Part shown: one piece after another, positions 5,643 to 58,482 of the stretch
Numbering within the stretch: the stretch's first letter is position 1
Layout: each line of letters starts with the position of its first letter
Source: a virus
Strand: one strand, 5' to 3'
Virus record (IMG/VR): IMGVR_UViG_3300025137_000017
Span: 71,612 to 135,611 of that record
DNA: 64,000 nt
The notes under the pieces: model-generated
Told to the model about the DNA's origin: nothing
What the model saw: only the letters and a program-made list of their open reading frames with translations
Database searches by the model: none
Position numbers and translations under genes: made by a program

Positions 5643-5744
5643 ATACATATATAACTCTATAATAAGCACTATTTTGGCTTATCCTATAAATACGAGTAGA
5701 ACAAAAATGTTTCTACAAACGTTATTTTTAAAGGAGAATTCCAA

Positions 5745-8201
5745 ATGGCAAATCTTGTTTCACCTGGCGTACAGGTTTCAGTAACAGACGAGTCAGTATA
5801 CGGTCCTGCAGGCGCTGGCACAGTCCCAATGTTGTTTATTGCAACAGGGCAAAATAAAACAGATCCTACGGGCACAGAGACTGACGGTATTGCAAAATAT
5901 ACCAAAGCCGTTAATTGTGGTAAACCTATCCTAGTAACATCACAGAGAGAACTAACACAGTACTTCGGTAATATTGATTTCCGTACAGTAAGTGGTACAG
6001 TTCAACAAGGTGATGAAACTAATGATTATGGTCTACTAGCGGCATATAGTTTCTTGGGCCAAAGTGCGGCAGCTTACATTGTGAACGCAGACGTAAACGT
6101 CACACAACTTCGTCCAAGTTCAGCTGAACCAGTTGGTCCAGCGGCTAATCTAACTTATTGGGTAAACCCAACACTATCAAAATATGGCATATATGAATAT
6201 AGTGCCGCAAGTATTTGGGTAGCACAAACACCAACAGTTGAAATTGTAACAACTGCCGGAACTGCATCAGCAGCTGTTGTTAACGATACTTACTTAGTAG
6301 AAGTTGTTAACGGTGCTTCTAATACACAAATTATATACTACAAAGGCACAGGCGGCAATTGGGTAGCAGTAACAACAGCCACCAATGCCACATATGCTCC
6401 ACACTATTCAGTTCCAACTTCACCAAGTACAGGTGATATATGGGTTAAGACAACAACTCCAGGCGCAGGCTTAGATGTTGATATTTCACTTTACTTAACT
6501 TCAACTGCAACATTTGTAGCAAAAACACCAGTTTATGCTAATGATCATGCAACTGATCCAACAGGCGTTGTAGGAGACATTCAACAAGATGGTACTGCAG
6601 GCGTAGCCAATAGTAACTTGTCTGACGGAGAGATTTGGCTATCAATTAACGATGGTACTGGCGTAGTTGAAATTAAACGTTGGGACGATACAGCGGCTCA
6701 AGAATGGGATGATATCTCAACTTCTTCAGCAACTGCAACTGGCGGATACATTATGAGTGTATCAACAACACAACCTTCAGGTTCACCAGTAAACGGTACA
6801 CTATGGTTTGACCCAGACGTAAACGACTTAGACATTTATGAAGCTGCTCTAGACAGTGGTGTACAAAAATGGCTTAAAGTAAGTGACATCCAGTATATTA
6901 GTACTGCTCCATTAACAAATAAAAGTGGCGGAGCTCTAGGAGACGGTGACTATTGGATTGATACTGATGCATCTGGTTATCCTGTAATTTACAGACATAA
7001 CGGAACATCATGGATTGTTAAAGATAAAACAGACCAAAGCACAAGTGCAGGTGTTGTATTCGGTGATATTACTGATTTAGCAAGTGCAGGCGGCGCCTTT
7101 ATTGCGGCTGCAGGCGTATTAGCAGGCGGACCTAATCCACTGGTATATCCAGTAGGTATGTCAGCAATTAACATGTGTCGTTCAGCAGCTACTGTTAAAA
7201 AATACAACAGTTCACTATCAACTACATGGAAATGGCGTAACTTTGCAGGCAACCAAGCAGATGGTTCAGGATCATTTGGTAGACTTGCACAACGTAGAGT
7301 TATTACTAATGCACTTCAGTCGGCGGCTGGTGCAACAGAACTTCGTGAAGAAGCAGTACAATTCCGTTTAATCGCTGCTCCGGCATATCCGGAACTATTT
7401 GATGAAATGGTTACACTAAACAGTGATCGTAATGAAACAGCATTTATTATTGTTGATACACCATTCCGTATAAATGCCACAGAAGCAGTTACATGGATTG
7501 ACGGTACTGCCGCAACAGAGAACGGCGAATCAGGACTAGTAGGAAAGAATACTTATTCAGCAGCTTATTACCCAAGTGTACTAACAACTGATCCAGTAAG
7601 TGGCAAGAGCGTTGTTGCTCCTGCATCACATTCAGTACTATACACATATGCATATAACGACAACGTTAGTTTCCAGTGGTTTGCTCCAGCAGGACTAACA
7701 CGCGGTATTGTACAAAATGCAACAAACGTTGGTTTCCTAAATAGTGAGAACGAGTTTACTCCACTATCACTAACACAAGGTTCACGTGATGCAATGTATG
7801 TTAAGAAACTTAACCCAATTGCAAGATTTCCTGCAGAAGGAATGGTTGTATTTGGACAGAAGTCATTACATTCAGGTGCAAGTGCATTAGATAGAGTTAA
7901 CGTAGCACGTTTAACAGCATATCTAAGAGAACGATTTGCAGTTATTGGCAGACCTTACTTGTTTGAGCCAAATGATGCAAACACACGTTCTAATGCTAAA
8001 GGTACGTTTGAAGGATTTATGTCAAACATACTAGCACAAAGAGGTGTATTTGACTATGCAGTAGTTTGTGATACAACAAACAACACTCCTGCGAGAATCG
8101 ATGCTAATGAATTATATATTGATGTAGCGATTGAGCCAACTAAAGCGGCTGAATTTATATACATTCCAATTCGTATCGTTAACACAGGCGAACTTAGTTA
8201 A
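5745..8201 (+). CDS. contractile tail sheath protein (gp18-like)
   Basis: LVSPGVQVSVTDES start, WFAPAGLTRG, FGQK..SALDRVNVARL, CDTTNNTP..ID, EPTKAAEFIYI; TATAAATA at 5685. Confidence 0.95.
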   Translation: MANLVSPGVQVSVTDESVYGPAGAGTVPMLFIATGQNKTDPTGTETDGIAKYTKAVNCGKPILVTSQRELTQYFGNIDFRTVSGTVQQGDETNDYGLLAAYSFLGQSAAAYIVNADVNVTQLRPSSAEPVGPAANLTYWVNPTLSKYGIYEYSAASIWVAQTPTVEIVTTAGTASAAVVNDTYLVEVVNGASNTQIIYYKGTGGNWVAVTTATNATYAPHYSVPTSPSTGDIWVKTTTPGAGLDVDISLYLTSTATFVAKTPVYANDHATDPTGVVGDIQQDGTAGVANSNLSDGEIWLSINDGTGVVEIKRWDDTAAQEWDDISTSSATATGGYIMSVSTTQPSGSPVNGTLWFDPDVNDLDIYEAALDSGVQKWLKVSDIQYISTAPLTNKSGGALGDGDYWIDTDASGYPVIYRHNGTSWIVKDKTDQSTSAGVVFGDITDLASAGGAFIAAAGVLAGGPNPLVYPVGMSAINMCRSAATVKKYNSSLSTTWKWRNFAGNQADGSGSFGRLAQRRVITNALQSAAGATELREEAVQFRLIAAPAYPELFDEMVTLNSDRNETAFIIVDTPFRINATEAVTWIDGTAATENGESGLVGKNTYSAAYYPSVLTTDPVSGKSVVAPASHSVLYTYAYNDNVSFQWFAPAGLTRGIVQNATNVGFLNSENEFTPLSLTQGSRDAMYVKKLNPIARFPAEGMVVFGQKSLHSGASALDRVNVARLTAYLRERFAVIGRPYLFEPNDANTRSNAKGTFEGFMSNILAQRGVFDYAVVCDTTNNTPARIDANELYIDVAIEPTKAAEFIYIPIRIVNTGELS

Positions 8202-14285: not shown

Positions 14286-14533
14286 TGATGGTTTGGGAGA
14301 CATTTATAATATGCTTGGTATTCTTATTAGTTATCATGGCGGCCATGAGTATAGGCCTCCTGAGAGGCCGACGTGTAAAAGGGAGTTGCGGTGGTGCTAC
14401 CGGCGTTTGCTCTGTATGTGGCGAAGACAATGCAAAAGAAAAGATAGTTATCAAAGGTGAAGAACATTTAAAACGTCCTGAGCCAACACGTTACGGAACG
14501 TGGGAAAGTAAAGGCACAGATGTCGACTTTTGA
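14285..14533 (+). CDS. nqrM: NqrM-like (DUF539) membrane-anchored Cys-rich protein
   Basis: TM helix FLLVIMAAMSIG followed by KGSCGG...CSVC, the NqrM signature. Confidence 0.65.
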   Translation: MMVWETFIICLVFLLVIMAAMSIGLLRGRRVKGSCGGATGVCSVCGEDNAKEKIVIKGEEHLKRPEPTRYGTWESKGTDVDF

Positions 14534-14544
14534 TAAATATGTAG

Positions 14545-14638
14545 GTAACGCTTAGGACCCGCTGTTACAGGCGTCAAGGTTACTGTTTATCCTTAAGGAC
14601 ATGGTTCGCTACTCTTGTCTTTTAAAAAACAGACTTTT
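14545..14638 (+). ncRNA. candidate late-transcribed two-hairpin small RNA
   Basis: TAAATA at 14534-14539 puts +1 at 14545, the first base of stem GTAAC/GTTAC; second stem (C)TGTTT..AAGGACA/TGTCTTT..AAACAG with TTCGCTAC loop; T-run follows; next gene has its own promoter. Confidence 0.55.
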
Positions 14639-14655
14639 AACAGATAAATATTAAT

Positions 14656-21222: not shown

Positions 21223-21295
21223 AAAAACACTTGACACACTGGCTAATTGTGCTATTATAGTAATATAGGACAAACAAGCTAATAGGACAGTGAAA

Positions 21296-22006
21296 ATGGC
21301 TAAAAAATCTAAAATTATCAGCGGATACAATCCACAAGAAGTACTTGCTCTAGGAGTACAAACCTACAATGCACAGGGCTTCGTTCGTAGTGGCGATGGG
21401 TATATTAAAGTAGACCCAAATACAGGTGAGAAATCAACCGAAGTCAAGGATAACAAATCGCTTATTCTTGATCTAATCGCTGATAACACCCGCCCTTCCC
21501 CAGAAGATATGCAAGAAGCACAAGTTATCATGGACAAGTTCAGTGGTAAATTTATGTTGAAAAAACTACAAGGTAGTTTAACTCGCTTTGAAACCAGTGT
21601 AAGTGAGGCGTTCACTAATGATCTTACTAACTTTACTGTTGCAGTTATTGCCAGTATTCCTCATATGAATGTTATTGACAAAGTAAGACAAACTATTACA
21701 GATAAAATTGAAGAGTTACGTTTTAAAAGTGATTACTTTGGTGATGTCCGTACACGTTATGATCTTTCAGTAGAGATTATTGATGTAAAGTTTATTCAAA
21801 CATCAGGTGTATACATGATCACTAGTGTATATAATGACACAGATATTATTAAGTTTTGGTGGAGAGATCAGCCAGATATCAGTGATATTATTAACGGTAA
21901 AACTGTTACTATTCGTGGAACAGTTCTCAAACATGAGAATAGTAAGTATTCCAAAGCAAAAGAAACAATGTTAAATCGTGTTAAAATTATGGGAGAGCTA
22001 AAATAA
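21296..22006 (+). CDS. hypothetical protein, possible C-terminal OB fold
   Basis: sigma70 promoter at 21231-21258; C-terminus VTIRGTVLKH...ETMLNRVK resembles OB-fold strands. Confidence 0.55.
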   Translation: MAKKSKIISGYNPQEVLALGVQTYNAQGFVRSGDGYIKVDPNTGEKSTEVKDNKSLILDLIADNTRPSPEDMQEAQVIMDKFSGKFMLKKLQGSLTRFETSVSEAFTNDLTNFTVAVIASIPHMNVIDKVRQTITDKIEELRFKSDYFGDVRTRYDLSVEIIDVKFIQTSGVYMITSVYNDTDIIKFWWRDQPDISDIINGKTVTIRGTVLKHENSKYSKAKETMLNRVKIMGELK

Positions 22007-49205: not shown

Positions 49206-49281
49206 GCCGCAATAGCTCAGTTGGTAGAGCAATGGTTTTGTAAACCATAGGTCCCGAGTTCGAATCTTGGTTGCGGCACCA
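49206..49281 (+). tRNA. tRNA-Thr(TGT)
   Basis: Cloverleaf GCCGCAA/TTGCGGC, anticodon arm ATGGT-TTTGTAA-ACCAT, TTCGAAT, encoded CCA. Confidence 0.95.
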
Positions 49282-49300
49282 TTTTATAGGGAGATAAAAG

Positions 49301-49513
49301 ATGGCTAAAGTAGGAGAACTAATAACACAAGCGGCTCGCAAACAAGCAGAAGGTGAGATTGCAGTACACCTAGCTAACATTGAAGTATACAGGACAATGC
49401 CAGCTGGTATTGGCGAACATTCAGATGTTACAGAAGCCGTGATTGCAGAGTTAAACAAACTTGCAGAAGCAGATGATAGACTATCTATGCTTAACAAATA
49501 CTTTAGCGAATAG
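49301..49513 (+). CDS. small conserved hypothetical protein
   Basis: GGGAG SD; HLANIEVY..MPAGIGEHSD motif. Confidence 0.7.
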   Translation: MAKVGELITQAARKQAEGEIAVHLANIEVYRTMPAGIGEHSDVTEAVIAELNKLAEADDRLSMLNKYFSE

Positions 49514-49569
49514 GGTAGTTACTTAATAAACTCACATAGGCCAACGGTTAGCCTATTAGGACAAAGTAT

Positions 49570-49654
49570 GCGCCTATGGTGGAATTGGTAGACACGCAGG
49601 TTTTAGGTACCTGTGCTTTACGGCGTGGGGGTTCAAGTCCCTCTAGGCGCACCA
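49570..49654 (+). tRNA. tRNA-Leu(TAG)
   Basis: GCGCCTA/TAGGCGC, CAGGT-TTTAGGT-ACCTG, long variable arm, TTCAAGT, CCA. Confidence 0.95.
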
Positions 49655-49794
49655 TACCAAAACTTGTAGATGAGATATTATATCACTGTATGCAAGTAGG
49701 ACAAAACGACTTGGTGGAACAAAATAAACGGACAACGCGGCCACCTGAAAGAATCCGCAACGATAGGAAATACTTATACAAAACAAATATTAAA

Positions 49795-49829
49795 GTAGCC
49801 CTGGCAGTTAAATGCTAGGGTTACATTTT
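49795..49829 (+). terminator. 12-bp hairpin (terminator or processing site)
   Basis: gtagccctggca/tgctagggttac followed by ATTTT. Confidence 0.55.
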
Positions 49830-49844
49830 CAGAGGATACAATAA

Positions 49845-50156
49845 ATGGCAGATCAAGAAAGACATATGGATTACATGACTAGACGTTTAAGAGAAGAACG
49901 TGAAATTGATGAAGCCAATCAAATAAAGACAGTACAAAATATACAGAGTCAATTGACTAAACTAGAAACTAAAATAGATAGTCTAATTGAGCTATTATCG
50001 GTAAAGTGTTACGGTAGCACATCAGTCTCCAAAACTGAGGGCCTGGGTTCGACTCCTAGTACCGATGCCAATAAGAAACTTGATCATTGGATGGAAATGC
50101 ATAACAGTAGCCTAGATCATGAAGGTAAAATGAAAGCAAACTTTTGGAAGGAATAG
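49845..50156 (+). CDS. hypothetical coiled-coil protein whose frame spans tRNA-Trp
   Basis: GAGGA SD, coiled-coil N-half, no stop through the tRNA, next ORF starts 3 nt after stop. Confidence 0.5.
   Translation: MADQERHMDYMTRRLREEREIDEANQIKTVQNIQSQLTKLETKIDSLIELLSVKCYGSTSVSKTEGLGSTPSTDANKKLDHWMEMHNSSLDHEGKMKANFWKE
49997..50070 (+). tRNA. tRNA-Trp(CCA)
   Basis: ATCGGTA/TACCGAT, TCAGT-CTCCAAA-ACTGA, TTCGACT, G73-CCA; atypical A at position 8. Confidence 0.88.
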
Positions 50157-50159
50157 AAA

Positions 50160-50243
50160 ATGAATCCCAACCCACACTACATAAACATGCTTATTAATAT
50201 AGGTATTTTTGGATTACTCATTTACGTTGCAATAAACGTATAA
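50160..50243 (+). CDS. 27-aa hydrophobic peptide (not in ORF track)
   Basis: MNPNPHYINMLINIGIFGLLIYVAINV with AAGGA SD. Confidence 0.4.
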   Translation: MNPNPHYINMLINIGIFGLLIYVAINV

Positions 50244-50249
50244 ACGAAT

Positions 50250-50326
<77 letters not shown>

Positions 50327-55034: not shown

Positions 55035-55075
55035 TTGACATAAGTATTTAGTTGTGTTAGAATAAGGTATAAATA
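55035..55075. promoter_or_regulatory. overlapping divergent promoters (sigma70 +, late -, late +)
   Basis: TTGACA(55035)-N17-TAGAAT(55058); TATTTA 55045; TATAAATA 55068. Confidence 0.6.
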
Positions 55076-55800
55076 TGAATATGCTTAGAAATGATGAAGA
55101 AAAACAAGAGATCCTAAACCGTCTTGAACCAACTAGGGTCATAAAAAACTGTATATCCGTTGAAATGATGGATATGCTACGTGGTGTCTATACGACTAGC
55201 GAAAAAAACTTTAAGAATACTGGACCTATTACAGTTGATTATTTCCCAAGGAAGCCACCATATGCGGACTGGTGGTTAACTATTGACAAACTAATCACTC
55301 GCTATATAGGAAAGCATTCAACGTTCACTACAAACTTCTATGAGGTTGAATACCCGCACATACTACACAATGATGACAGTATTCAACTAAAACCTCGCCT
55401 ACATAAAACTGTAGTGATACCCCTAGAGATAAGTGAGCCAACTGAGTTTGCAATATTTGATCAATGCTATTTAGATGGACCTGTTAAATTAAGACATGGT
55501 GGCACACCAAAAAATAAAAATCACGATAAACCCGTAACCTACTACAACACAGACTTAACTGATAATTCAAAACTAATTAATTATACTGGCAAAGACTTTG
55601 ATCCTGAACTATGGGAAGATAAGTTCAGTCATTATGGTATAGAAAAATTCCACGGACTTAGTGTTGAATCAATAGTTAAATGGAACCCAGGAGATATTAT
55701 TATATTTGATACTGCTAGAATACATTGTGCAACAGACTTCCGTAAGCAGGGTATTAAACGTAAGTTGGGATATAGTATCTTTACTGCCAAAGAGGACTAA
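55075..55800 (+). CDS. 2OG-Fe(II) oxygenase-like protein
   Basis: LHNDD, VVIPL, WNPGDIIIFDTARIHCA, distal K. Confidence 0.7.
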   Translation: MNMLRNDEEKQEILNRLEPTRVIKNCISVEMMDMLRGVYTTSEKNFKNTGPITVDYFPRKPPYADWWLTIDKLITRYIGKHSTFTTNFYEVEYPHILHNDDSIQLKPRLHKTVVIPLEISEPTEFAIFDQCYLDGPVKLRHGGTPKNKNHDKPVTYYNTDLTDNSKLINYTGKDFDPELWEDKFSHYGIEKFHGLSVESIVKWNPGDIIIFDTARIHCATDFRKQGIKRKLGYSIFTAKED

Positions 55801-55801
55801 C

Positions 55802-56575
55802 ATGTATATAAACAATTGTTCGGAACATAAACAAACCGTACTGGATAACTTTGAACCAGCTGAATTAATACAATCGGCACTTACACAGACACAAATAGAT
55901 GAATTAATGTTATTACAGTTTCAGACTGCTGATAGAATAAAGTATACTGCATCAAGTAATAATATTCAACCCGTATGTGATATTGATAGTGTGTTTGCTA
56001 AATGTAGTTGGCTTAAACCCATGTTTAATAATTTAATTGGTGAATTTTCAGATAACCACAGTGGTAATTATTATATTACTACAAACCTACATGATGCACA
56101 TGTGGACTTATTAAGTGAGAACGAGTGTTCAAGGCCAGAGTTTGAATGGACCAAACGTGTAATACCCTATAAGAGTTGTGTTATACCATTGTTGATCACT
56201 GAGAAATCTGATGCCGTAACGGCATTCTTTAACCAAAGACACATAGGGTATTCAACTACATTCGATAGAGTTAAGATAAGCGAACAGGGTAATAGTGAAT
56301 ATGAAATTGCTAGAGATTATCCAGACTTATATGAACGTGATGGCAGTTTAAGTGATGGTGAATATGTATATAAAAGAAAAAAAGATATTTTATTCCCACA
56401 TATACCTGCAGGTAATATGCAGGGATTAAGTGTAGAGATAGTAATGCCATATAGAGTGGGAGACATAATGTTATTTGATGCTTGTCAGATACATGCAAGT
56501 GGTACTAGAAGAAATAGACCCAACTACCGTTGGCTTAAAAGTGGAATGAATATACAATTTTATAAGGAGATATAA
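55802..56575 (+). CDS. 2OG-Fe(II) oxygenase-like protein (paralogue of upstream gene)
   Basis: AHVD, CVIPL, YRVGDIMLFDACQIHAS, distal K; start MYINNC. Confidence 0.7.
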   Translation: MYINNCSEHKQTVLDNFEPAELIQSALTQTQIDELMLLQFQTADRIKYTASSNNIQPVCDIDSVFAKCSWLKPMFNNLIGEFSDNHSGNYYITTNLHDAHVDLLSENECSRPEFEWTKRVIPYKSCVIPLLITEKSDAVTAFFNQRHIGYSTTFDRVKISEQGNSEYEIARDYPDLYERDGSLSDGEYVYKRKKDILFPHIPAGNMQGLSVEIVMPYRVGDIMLFDACQIHASGTRRNRPNYRWLKSGMNIQFYKEI

Positions 56576-57342
56576 TGGCTAAGATACAAAACCTAGAAAC
56601 TGTGACAGCAGTAGAACACTTCACTGATGATTTGTTTTGGTTTAGAACTACTAAAAAAGGTGAATGGACTCGTCCATTTAGACCCGGTGAGTTTGTAATG
56701 ATTGGTATGGGAGATGACAATACTACAAGAGCATATTCAATTGCAAACAGTCCTGACGACGATTGTATAGAGTTCTTTAGTATTAAAGTACAGGATGGTC
56801 CCCTAACATCAAGACTACAACATATTAAACTGGGAGATACATTAGACGTAAGTACTCGTCCAATTGGAACTTTAATATTAACTAATTTAAATATGTATAA
56901 CCTAGATCACGACAAGCCTCGTCTATGGTGTATATCAACAGGCACAGGCTTAGCACCTTTCCTAAGTATTGCACGTCATCCAGAAGCATATGAATATTAC
57001 GATCAAGTAATAATTACACACACCTGCAGAACAAATGACGAATTAGTATTCCGTTCAGAGCTGGAAGCTCAAGGTGCTGTCGTATATCAGACAGTAACAA
57101 GAGAAGAACCTGCTGAAGGAGTATATGAAGGTAGAATAACAGATAATATTAATAGTGGTAAACTATTTAAAGATCTAGACTGTGATGAGTTTGATCCCAC
57201 AAGAGATCGCATAATGATTTGTGGAGGACCCAGCTTTAATAATGAAATAAGAGCAATGTTGGAAGCCAAAGGCTGGGAACATGGCACTATGAAGTCACCT
57301 GGACACTTTGTACAAGAAAGAGCATTTGTAGAAACCTTATAA
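56575..57342 (+). CDS. fpr: ferredoxin/flavodoxin-NADP+ reductase, bacterial type
   Basis: FRPGEF, RAYSIAN, GPLTSRLQ, TGTGLAPF, MICG, C-terminal ERAFVE. Confidence 0.92.
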   Translation: MAKIQNLETVTAVEHFTDDLFWFRTTKKGEWTRPFRPGEFVMIGMGDDNTTRAYSIANSPDDDCIEFFSIKVQDGPLTSRLQHIKLGDTLDVSTRPIGTLILTNLNMYNLDHDKPRLWCISTGTGLAPFLSIARHPEAYEYYDQVIITHTCRTNDELVFRSELEAQGAVVYQTVTREEPAEGVYEGRITDNINSGKLFKDLDCDEFDPTRDRIMICGGPSFNNEIRAMLEAKGWEHGTMKSPGHFVQERAFVETL

Positions 57343-57350
57343 ATATGGGT

Positions 57351-57436
57351 GTAGTACTGCTGGTTACATTATGTGGCCCCGGTCTTTAAAACCGTTGCAG
57401 AAATAACGCCCTAGGAATTTGTAATAGTAGTACTAC
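57351..57436 (+). ncRNA. candidate late-transcribed structured RNA
   Basis: TATAAATA 57338-57345 puts +1 at 57351, the first base of a 17-bp terminal stem; apical CGGT-CTTTAAA-ACCG. Confidence 0.55.
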
Positions 57437-57455
57437 GATTCCAGGAGATATTCAA

Positions 57456-57713
57456 ATGAAAGACTTAATTGGACATAACAGTAAAAATAAAAAGAAATTA
57501 ATTATAGACATTACTGATATATACGACCAGAGAGACAGAAAGAAAAAAGAATTAACGTTTTATACTGCTGAGTTAGAAAAATGTATGGCGAAGCTGGGTA
57601 TGATTCAATATGAGATTGGCGTTAACGAAGCTATTATTCGTATGATAGAGAACGAACAGATCTTAGATCTACAGGAAGCAATTCGAGATAAACGAAAACA
57701 TCTACAGGATTAA
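57456..57713 (+). CDS. small coiled-coil protein
   Basis: AGGAG SD; R.RK.KEL.FY motif. Confidence 0.65.
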   Translation: MKDLIGHNSKNKKKLIIDITDIYDQRDRKKKELTFYTAELEKCMAKLGMIQYEIGVNEAIIRMIENEQILDLQEAIRDKRKHLQD

Positions 57714-57717
57714 TTAA

Positions 57718-58482
57718 ATGCTATATATTGTTGTAAGTCCTAGCTGTTTAAGTCAGATGGAAATTCCTTACCTTTTAAACTGTTCACCAGAGTTCTTTGG
57801 GGAGCAACCACATGACAAATGGTGGGCTACATATACCCTAAATGATTCAGAAGTTGATGGTGAACTGGGAGAGTTTGGTACTGTTAGAGTACATGATGAC
57901 TACTGGCATATAGATGATACTGACAGACCCTATTATAATTTTAAAGTGCGTAATAGTCTTGAATTAACACATGAACAGTATAGGGGTTTATTAAATCTAA
58001 TACCACGTCATAAAAACATTGCCGTATTATTACATGCACAAAATATACAAGACATATTTGCTTGGAGTAGAACAGATGATGTAATGGTGATTGCGGCCTA
58101 CATGGGTGACTGGGAAAACGATATAGAGTACTGGGCAATGCGAGAGTTCAATACCATAATGCAGGACGATAGAAATGCAAACTATAGTTCAGCTAATCAC
58201 ACCTATACAGACGTTGCTAGTGTTGTGACTGCTTTTAACCACAGGCGCAATAGTGATAGAGACTGGCGTAAACGTGCCCTGGGCAATTGTGATAGAGTTA
58301 TAAGCCAGCCTGAATGGCAAAGAAGTGAAGAAATCTTCTGGTTCTGGGATCACTTCGGAGTTACACCTACATCAAGAACATGGTGTAAACAATACTTTGA
58401 AACATTTCAGAGTAAACAGGAATATAATGTAGAAAGACTACAACAACTAAGAAAGGAATACAATAATGTATCACCTAGATAA
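57718..58482 (+). CDS. hypothetical protein, possibly divergent sulfotransferase-like
   Basis: YIVVSPSCLSQMEIPYLLNCSPEF N-terminus; FWDHFGV near C-terminus. Confidence 0.45.
   Translation: MLYIVVSPSCLSQMEIPYLLNCSPEFFGEQPHDKWWATYTLNDSEVDGELGEFGTVRVHDDYWHIDDTDRPYYNFKVRNSLELTHEQYRGLLNLIPRHKNIAVLLHAQNIQDIFAWSRTDDVMVIAAYMGDWENDIEYWAMREFNTIMQDDRNANYSSANHTYTDVASVVTAFNHRRNSDRDWRKRALGNCDRVISQPEWQRSEEIFWFWDHFGVTPTSRTWCKQYFETFQSKQEYNVERLQQLRKEYNNVSPR

Follow-up and report, generated by a model that had tools for sequence, protein, structure and literature searches.

The leader of the Escherichia coli ompA message is a 5′-terminal stabilizer stem-loop of a bacterial mRNA. A different kind of 5′ stabilizer, the stabilizing Shine-Dalgarno (STAB-SD) or polypurine element, is found in the cryIIIA leader of Bacillus thuringiensis and in early RNA of the Bacillus subtilis phage SP82; these elements are unstructured and act against 5′ exonuclease in Gram-positive hosts. 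Here we describe a structured RNA element in a 64,000-nucleotide (nt) stretch of viral DNA, hereafter the window (positions 71,612 to 135,611 of the IMG/VR virus record IMGVR_UViG_3300025137_000017), where it lies between the gene fpr and an operon whose first two genes encode proteins of 85 and 254 amino acids (aa). Our analyses support that the element is a real, conserved RNA-level structure at the predicted transcription start (+1) of a late-type promoter. The reading that we favor, to which we assign a probability of roughly 60%, is that it works in cis as a structured 5′ leader, clamping the mRNA at its 5′ end and presenting a conserved core to which the ribosome, a protein or a ligand would bind.

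In phage T4, the operators that control translation of genes 32 and 43 are each bound by the product of the gene downstream of them, and RNases E and G, which are major in T4 mRNA decay, act preferentially on 5′ ends that are accessible; the same source also deals with the usage of T4 late promoters (PMC3014915). Post-transcriptional control of T4-type late genes is known mostly from T4 itself. In a survey, Fremin et al. (2023) listed 8,495 unnamed candidate structured RNAs from IMG/VR phages, a large number of which lie a short distance upstream of a gene (PMC10690425).

Results

A conserved RNA fold with covarying helices

The window copy of the element comprises 86 nt (Table 1, which gives positions in the window). 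A first-pass annotation of the window had described it as a rod, and the outer stem of that rod (P1) stands as proposed, with 17 bp, one bulge and two G-U pairs (57359/57428 and 57362/57425) and a RNAduplex energy of −19.7 kcal/mol. The proposed apical hairpin (P2) is likewise present, CGGU (57380 to 57383) and ACCG (57391 to 57394) closing the 7-nt loop CUUUAAA (57384 to 57390). The 86-nt RNA folds at −25.4 kcal/mol, compared to −16.97 ± 2.96 kcal/mol for 200 dinucleotide shuffles (z = −2.85), four of which fold as well; its reverse complement reaches −22.6 kcal/mol (z = −2.56). The annotated observation was confirmed, but the single-sequence minimum free energy (MFE) fold is a cloverleaf-like three-way junction and not a rod. 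The MFE fold (−25.4 kcal/mol), the family consensus (−22.2 kcal/mol) and the rod (−21.1 kcal/mol) lie within ∼4 kcal/mol of each other. The inner helix that had been drawn in the rod, UGUGG/UUGCA, is not retained in homologues; a GGC/GCC helix (P3) is supported in its place.

Table 1. Features of the element and of the operon that follows it
Feature	Position	Strand	Remarks
T4-type late-promoter motif TATAAATA	57338..57345	+	Overlaps the fpr stop; predicted promoter function
P1, 5′ strand, 18 nt, G57363 bulged	57351..57368	+	Begins at the predicted +1
J1, 5′ side of lower internal loop, UUAUGU	57369..57374	+	U/A-rich, 2 to 9 nt in homologues
P3, 5′ strand, GGC of conserved (U)GGCC	57375..57377	+	Alignment, RNAalifold
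P2 hairpin, CGGU, loop CUUUAAA, ACCG	57380..57394	+	Covariation among homologues
J2, A-rich 3′ side of upper internal loop, UUGCAGAAAUAAC	57395..57407	+	(U)AUAGGAC(A)AAA in most homologues
P3, 3′ strand, GCC	57408..57410	+	Alignment, pairs in homologues, RNAalifold
J3, 3′ side of lower internal loop, CUAGGAAU plus U, with Shine-Dalgarno-like AGGAA	57411..57419	+	NNGGA(C/A) in most homologues
P1, 3′ strand	57420..57436	+	RNAduplex, flank-pairing test
Shine-Dalgarno AGGAG of the 85-aa gene	57443..57447	+	6 nt past P1; predicted unpaired probability 0.64
First operon gene, 85-aa protein	57456..57713	+	One long helix predicted, residues 19 to 84
Second operon gene, 254-aa protein	57718..58482	+	Sulfotransferase-like P-loop fold predicted

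The first-pass annotation had called for a homologue search with a covariation check, which revealed a conserved, covarying element in uncultured viral and metagenome contigs. Pairing of P1 was assessed in 27 copies by comparing the 24-nt flanks on either side of the family-model match with their own and with unrelated partners. The flanks paired with their own partner at a mean of −14.8 kcal/mol, compared to −6.4 ± 2.7 kcal/mol with unrelated ones. The own partner was strictly best in 16 of the 27 copies, and in the other 11 between one and five of the ∼24 unrelated partners equaled it. P2 was examined in an alignment that had been fitted with a core covariance model, towards which it leans. 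In this alignment all four P2 pairs have changed on both sides among homologues, 85% of the cells are paired compared to 31 to 53% with slid partners, and the covariation score was reached by none of 500 shuffles. P3 is nearly invariant and varies by G-U only (GC or GU pairs in 24 rows), GGCC being invariant in a 16-row alignment (A4); the exception is the copy at locus L066, which has GAC/GUC and to which the family model gives no match.

The annotation had further suggested that the pairing occurs at the RNA level. Indeed, P2 and P3 together contain 26 G-U or U-G cells compared to a single A-C, and this asymmetry is consistent with pairing in the plus-strand RNA rather than in its complement. 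In a variant contig from another marine sample, all four substitutions inside the element preserve pairs: 57366 A>G converts A-U to G-U, 57391 A>G converts U-A to U-G, and 57425 T>C converts G-U to G-C, as does 57428 T>C. The same contig has a one-base deletion in J1. These data bear on whether the segment is a DNA-level palindrome or a chance fold that has no RNA function, as might be supposed from the minus strand, which also folds well (z = −2.56) and folds better than the plus strand in 8 of 27 copies. Compensatory changes across ∼20 lineages, the 26-to-1 asymmetry, and an orientation that is fixed relative to promoter and gene all argue against such an origin, which we regard as highly improbable.

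Occurrence and anatomy of the element

GenBank phages contain no DNA match to positions 56575 to 58482. Viral loci anchored on fpr carry the element after the fpr stop in three of seven cases. Anchoring on the 85-aa gene yielded it in 11 of 21 viral and 26 of 44 metagenome loci. With the 254-aa gene as anchor, 23 of 26 viral loci have a family-model match upstream (E ≤ 1), and a 24th (L201) holds a divergent copy of the L066 type that was recognized by eye. A loose DNA pattern scan of viral contigs, from which 80 loci were retrieved, found seven known elements again and five new copies (L076, L122, L092, L111 and L137). At another scan locus, L119, the promoter motif is present but accompanies a G+C-rich unrelated stretch, and this locus was not counted; the remaining ones appear to be chance matches in G+C-rich coding DNA. 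There are ∼30 distinct element sequences, representing ∼20 lineages with different outer stems. The family model locates a single copy in the window and no further one over the remaining 71.6 kb; its other matches in the 135.6-kb record are all at chance level (best E = 0.42 to 0.44).

The anatomy of the family was derived from 22 segmented copies. P1 is 7 to 18 bp long and lineage-specific in sequence, and it always pairs. The 5′ strand of P3 is (U)GGC, followed by C or CC, and its 3′ strand is GCC(A). P2 has 3 to 6 bp and a loop of either 5 to 11 nt or 23 to 27 nt, the latter containing a conserved insert. This insert of ∼23 to 27 nt (GAGAUUCAUUG..CAUGUCAA-like) takes the place of the short P2 loop in several lineages (L033, L044, L076, L122, L199, L204, L209 and L222) and looks like an optional RNA module. 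No lineage has lost the AGGA/GGA motif from both J2 and J3. Several other assignments within the element were considered and dropped. All were judged by eye. For a k-turn, GCCA-NNN-GA would suit the bulged strand, but AU/UU occupies the place of the necessary GA on the strand facing it. An 11-nt tetraloop receptor was likewise set aside, a J1/J3 pairing proved inconsistent between lineages, and the short open reading frames (ORFs) within the element, which might have formed a leader peptide, are not conserved.

The element is placed between a late-type promoter motif and a start codon

The promoter octamer that the first-pass annotation placed over the end of fpr (ORF 56575 to 57342) is present as TATAAATA, with the fpr stop codon (57340 to 57342) inside it. 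All 22 segmented homologues have an (N)(A/T)TAAATA-type octamer, located 3 to 8 nt ahead of P1 and often overlapping the stop codon of the preceding gene. We take +1 to be G57351, assuming the promoter spacing of T4; under that assumed spacing, P1 starts at −2 to +3 relative to the predicted +1 in 22 of 22 copies. In the window, all eight exact copies of TATAAATA are on the plus (coding) strand and several precede structural genes; sites before the tail sheath gene and after the prohead protease gene are among them. Their number is not above chance (8 compared to 10.8 expected in this A+T-rich DNA). T4-type late promoters are recognized by a TATAAATA-like octamer that precedes late (structural) genes and is on their coding strand; the motif has this feature and is treated here as a predicted promoter.

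Other late-type motifs in the window mostly precede short, unstructured leaders of 15 to 30 nt. The tail sheath leader (5685 to 5745) has TATAAATA, 3 nt, a 7-bp hairpin (GUAGAAC / GUUUCUAC) and then the Shine-Dalgarno sequence (SD), and the sheath message would be a second late message that starts with a stem.

On the other side of the element, the distance from the end of P1 to the AUG is 12 to 26 nt in all 20 leaders measured, and the SD lies within this interval. This spacing fits a leader for the gene at 57456; a stabilizing leader had been the second option of the first-pass annotation. The gene upstream of the element varies (fpr, a paralogue family ending ...GYSIFTAK, or another gene); the gene downstream always opens the same operon, and the orientation is constant. 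In five loci the 254-aa gene lies directly downstream, with no intervening 85-aa gene. In relatives that have no element, the 85-aa gene overlaps the upstream stop, or a bare promoter motif is followed immediately by the SD, and the family model has no match in those loci. Upstream of fpr, the window contains two adjoining paralogue-like ORFs with no family assigned (55075 to 55800 and ∼55799 to 56575); their relatives, ending ...GYSIFTAK, are the gene immediately upstream of the element in many other phages.

The SDs of this phage, taken from 60 gene starts, include AGGAG (16), AGGAA (7) and AGGAC (3), and the motifs in J2 and J3 have the same AGGA core. The mean predicted unpaired probability is 0.66 for the SD (19 leaders with an SD-like motif) and 0.91 for the AUG. 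Over the whole window WAGGAC is rarer than expected (34 occurrences compared to 50 ± 6.6 in shuffles, with 100 of 100 shuffles having at least 34), and several of its occurrences are grouped as pairs in intergenic leaders (14553/14595, 21266/21283 and 49557/49697).

The intergenic RNase III sites of phage T7 are a model for a different reading of this placement, in which a processing hairpin of the RNase III type separates the operon message from upstream transcripts and leaves a protective stem on it. The element resembles such a site in its location between genes and in its shape, an irregular rod whose stacked helices are interrupted by internal loops. However, the stacked length is only ∼17 bp in several lineages, the conservation of the loop sequences is not explained by processing, and the element begins at the predicted +1 of the promoter and not within a longer intergenic transcript. 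Processing is therefore, in our estimation, very unlikely to be its role.

tRNA-like and small-RNA readings

The 7-nt apical loop of the window copy had been seen as anticodon-like and the element as a possible tRNA mimic. This loop is not a family trait: CUUUAAA is confined to the close relatives of the window, and among homologues the apical loop ranges from 5 to 27 nt with a lineage-dependent sequence, the other loops being CUUUGAAA, CUUGA, UGAAA, AUUUCA, UUGCG, CUAAAAA, UCUAAGAG or the 23- to 27-nt insert. We reject the tRNA-mimic reading because the loop varies among homologues, which the annotation itself had named as the outcome that would speak against it. Its statement that the element is not a tRNA was correct. 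ARAGORN and Rfam find four tRNAs in the window, clustered at 49206 to 50326 (Thr-TGT, Leu-TAG, Trp-CCA and Arg-ACG), and none at 57351 to 57436; at gathering thresholds, Rfam 15 assigns no family to the element and reports only these four tRNAs in the window. A match to tRNA-Sec (RF01852) was dismissed, as it scores 15 bits compared to a threshold of 47 (E = 2.5) and is seen with the window copy only. A permissive Rfam search of the same stretch also gives a 15-nt match to a plant-virus hairpin, and in 12 homologous loci searched at E ≤ 10 neither a tRNA-like nor a recurrent match was obtained at the element.

The annotation had also joined the element with a candidate at 14545 into a class of late small RNAs. 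That grouping did not hold: the stretch at 14545 has no family-model match at E ≤ 10, and its fold is that of a shuffled sequence (z = −0.03). This stretch (14532 to 14640) likewise comes after a late-type motif; it has GATAAATA and then a leader of 100 nt, in which there are two AGGAC motifs, as (U)UAGGAC / UUAAGGAC.

More generally, the element could be a discrete small RNA acting in trans, either as a tRNA mimic or decoy or as a sponge for ribosomes or GGA-binding proteins, and freed at the end of P1 through termination or processing. It is a closed rod with both ends paired, some lineages have four to six U residues after P1 (for example, L035, L043, L036 and L018), and the weak 15-bit alignment of the window copy to tRNA-Sec is full-length. 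Yet the loop is not conserved, no tRNA is called, and the 12 homologues give no tRNA-like match. The window copy is followed by GAUUCC instead of a U-run, and no terminator-like site was called at 57351 to 57445. Since the terminator is not conserved, U-runs following P1 in some lineages only, a terminated small RNA is disfavored. The element moreover always stands 12 to 26 nt before a start codon on the same strand and occurs once in the genome fragment. We consider a trans-acting product unlikely.

The downstream operon and its genomic setting

The 85-aa protein has 35 invariant columns among 11 sequences and 61 to 96% identity among relatives, and its structure is modeled as a single long helix with a predicted local distance difference test (pLDDT) score of 83. 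The model of the 254-aa protein is confident (pLDDT 92). Its best structural matches are tyrosylprotein sulfotransferases (Z = 9.0 and 8.8), followed by other sulfotransferases (Z 6.8 to 7.9) and P-loop kinases (Z 6 to 8). A Foldseek search of the PDB gave nothing at E ≤ 0.001. We assign the predicted sulfotransferase-like fold with moderate confidence. Neither protein has a significant match in Pfam or PHROGs, and a protein atlas search gave only unnamed viral clusters; in GenBank phages, neither the 85-aa protein nor the L020 relative of it had a protein match. The 254-aa protein is the constant partner of the RNA element, and its relatives are all unnamed metagenome proteins. An N-terminal IGHNS motif of the 85-aa protein is present in one clade and missing from another. 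The element was found only before genes of the IGHNS type, except in L002, where the N terminus differs, and some IGHNS-type genes have no element. A repeat of AUAGGACA between J2 and codons 4 to 6 of the 85-aa gene was discarded as a signal; it is explained by the Ile-Gly-His codons and is also found in element-less relatives. Elsewhere in the window, at 21230 to 21298, a sigma-70-like promoter (TTGACA, 17 nt, TATTAT) precedes a pair of AUAGGACA copies within 25 nt, of which the latter is positioned like the SD of an ATG at ∼21296.

The window is the final 64 kb of the 135.6-kb record, for which CheckV estimates a completeness of 37%. The record has a G+C content of ∼36% and encodes T4-type functions, namely tail sheath, tube, terminase, gp32-like single-stranded DNA-binding protein, UvsX, UvsY, primase, helicase, NrdAB and prohead protease. 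The large terminase has its closest counterparts in PA5oct, Phosso and Atu_ph07, all of them jumbo phages (50 to 55% identity), and the runs that contain this DNA are marine or seawater metagenomes. None of the runs listed is recorded as RNA, and the assembled contigs of one run presumed to be RNA (X2) do not cover 57284 to 57534, which bears on expression in neither direction. The phages are best read as uncultured marine T4-like myoviruses, and those that carry the element are probably jumbo phages.

Discussion

We favor a cis-acting leader because the element is tied to a promoter on one side and to a start codon on the other, and because its orientation is constant and it is present in one copy in the genome fragment. 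The predicted openness of the SD and AUG further disfavors both a terminated small RNA and a classical riboswitch platform. In the mechanism that we propose, transcription from the late promoter would start at, or within ∼3 nt of, the first base of P1, so that a stem would close off the 5′ end of the mRNA from the moment it is made. On top of P1, the short conserved UGGC/GCCA helix and the variable hairpin would hold two purine-rich loops with AGGA/GGA motifs, and the genuine SD and AUG, 12 to 26 nt past P1, would remain open. P1 may then shield the 5′ end against 5′-end-dependent decay of the RNase E/G type and prolong the life of the message. Given the location of P1 near the predicted start and the preference of RNases E and G for accessible 5′ ends, such a 5′ clamp is the simplest function to suggest. 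The loop core, in turn, may be a docking site that tunes translation or decay, most likely for the 30S subunit, in the manner of a standby site or a STAB-SD-like one, or else for a GGA-binding protein. We propose these partners because the J2 and J3 motifs share the AGGA core of the SD.

The conserved core can also be read as an aptamer for a small ligand or for a dedicated phage or host protein, the element then being a regulatory operator or riboswitch whose partner would switch translation or decay, with UGGCC / AUAGGAC-AAAA-GCCA / NGGAC as the core between variable helices. What recommends this reading is that junction and loop nucleotides are conserved between helices that keep their pairing but not their sequence, as in an aptamer-like core with covarying helices. 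P2 may carry an insert, which varies in length; an operon that includes an enzyme-like gene invariably follows the element; and the element is absent from Rfam. An expression platform is, however, not evident, as no alternative pairing hides the SD or AUG (0.66 and 0.91 unpaired); no terminator is conserved, the U-run being limited to some lineages and missing from the window; and some lineages no longer have the core motifs. The 85-aa protein is unlikely to act as an autoregulator in loci that have no gene for it, and it is predicted to be a single long helix. On balance, an operator or riboswitch is a possible but tentative explanation. The more specific proposal, a new aptamer class that recognizes a metabolite or dedicated RNA-binding protein and gates the late sulfotransferase-like operon, is similarly speculative; if true, it would be a phage-specific riboswitch or operator with no Rfam counterpart.

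Several observations weigh against the cis-acting stabilizing leader. RNAalifold on a plain MAFFT alignment recovers only the 3-bp P3 (−1.03 kcal/mol), with no compensatory change; in that alignment P2 is offset by one column between lineages and P1 is unaligned. The covariation of P2 thus depends on the model-fitted alignment, and the support for P1 on our own duplex test. Many loci are repeated sampling of one phage, and folding energy favors the plus strand in only 19 of the 27 copies. No J2 or J3 motif is universal across lineages: J2 of the window's clade and of L002 is A-rich with no GG, so that AGGA is missing, and J3 of L035 and L036 is AAAAGUAC-like with no GGA. The conserved internal-loop sequences exceed the needs of a plain stabilizer hairpin. 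Several relatives have the operon without the element, which points to the element being dispensable; they would express the same operon by translational coupling or from a bare promoter and SD. Finally, transcription itself, with its 5′ and 3′ ends, is deduced from the DNA.

If the cis-acting leader reading is right, a covarying RNA stands where a late transcript is predicted to begin, in an uncultured but widespread group of marine phages, ahead of two genes. It would mark the coiled-coil and sulfotransferase-like operon as regulated apart from the other late genes of the phage, and at 60 to 110 nt it offers a compact test object for the stabilization or tuning of late messages and for the partners of SD-like loops. 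The analysis also corrects a tempting reading of the element as a tRNA mimic.

We assign the element to the cis-regulatory leader RNAs of phages, as one with no counterpart in Rfam; no Rfam family matches it, and a full-text literature search found no description of the motif. It resembles the candidates of Fremin et al. in being a covarying motif at most 25 nt upstream of a phage gene in viral metagenome contigs (PMC10690425). The upstream-motif table of that work includes only genes with known domains, of which the operon genes have none, and our contig numbers were not found in the supplement tables searched (PMC10690425). The motif may already be catalogued, unnamed, among those candidates.

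Compared to tRNA and tRNA-Sec (RF00005 and RF01852), the element shares a long outer stem and, in its window copy, an inner hairpin whose loop has 7 nt and an MFE fold resembling a cloverleaf, but it has no T arm, its loop is not conserved, its score is below threshold, and its homologues give no matches. Like the operators of T4 genes 32 and 43, it is a structured leader RNA of a T4-type phage gene that is conserved among relatives; unlike them, its first gene can be absent and encodes a single helix, and the gene 32 operator is a pseudoknot, of which none is evident here (PMC3014915). Like the STAB-SD elements, it has SD-like purine motifs close to the predicted 5′ end and ahead of the real SD, with no start codon after them. 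It differs from these in that its motifs are in the internal loops of a rod and no motif is universal. A further parallel is to 5′-terminal stabilizers of the ompA type, as the stem begins within a few nt of the predicted 5′ end and an open ribosome-binding site follows downstream. To such a hairpin, with a presumed stabilizing effect, the element adds a conserved inner core (P3, J2 and J3) and a second hairpin, by which it is set apart from plain stabilizers.

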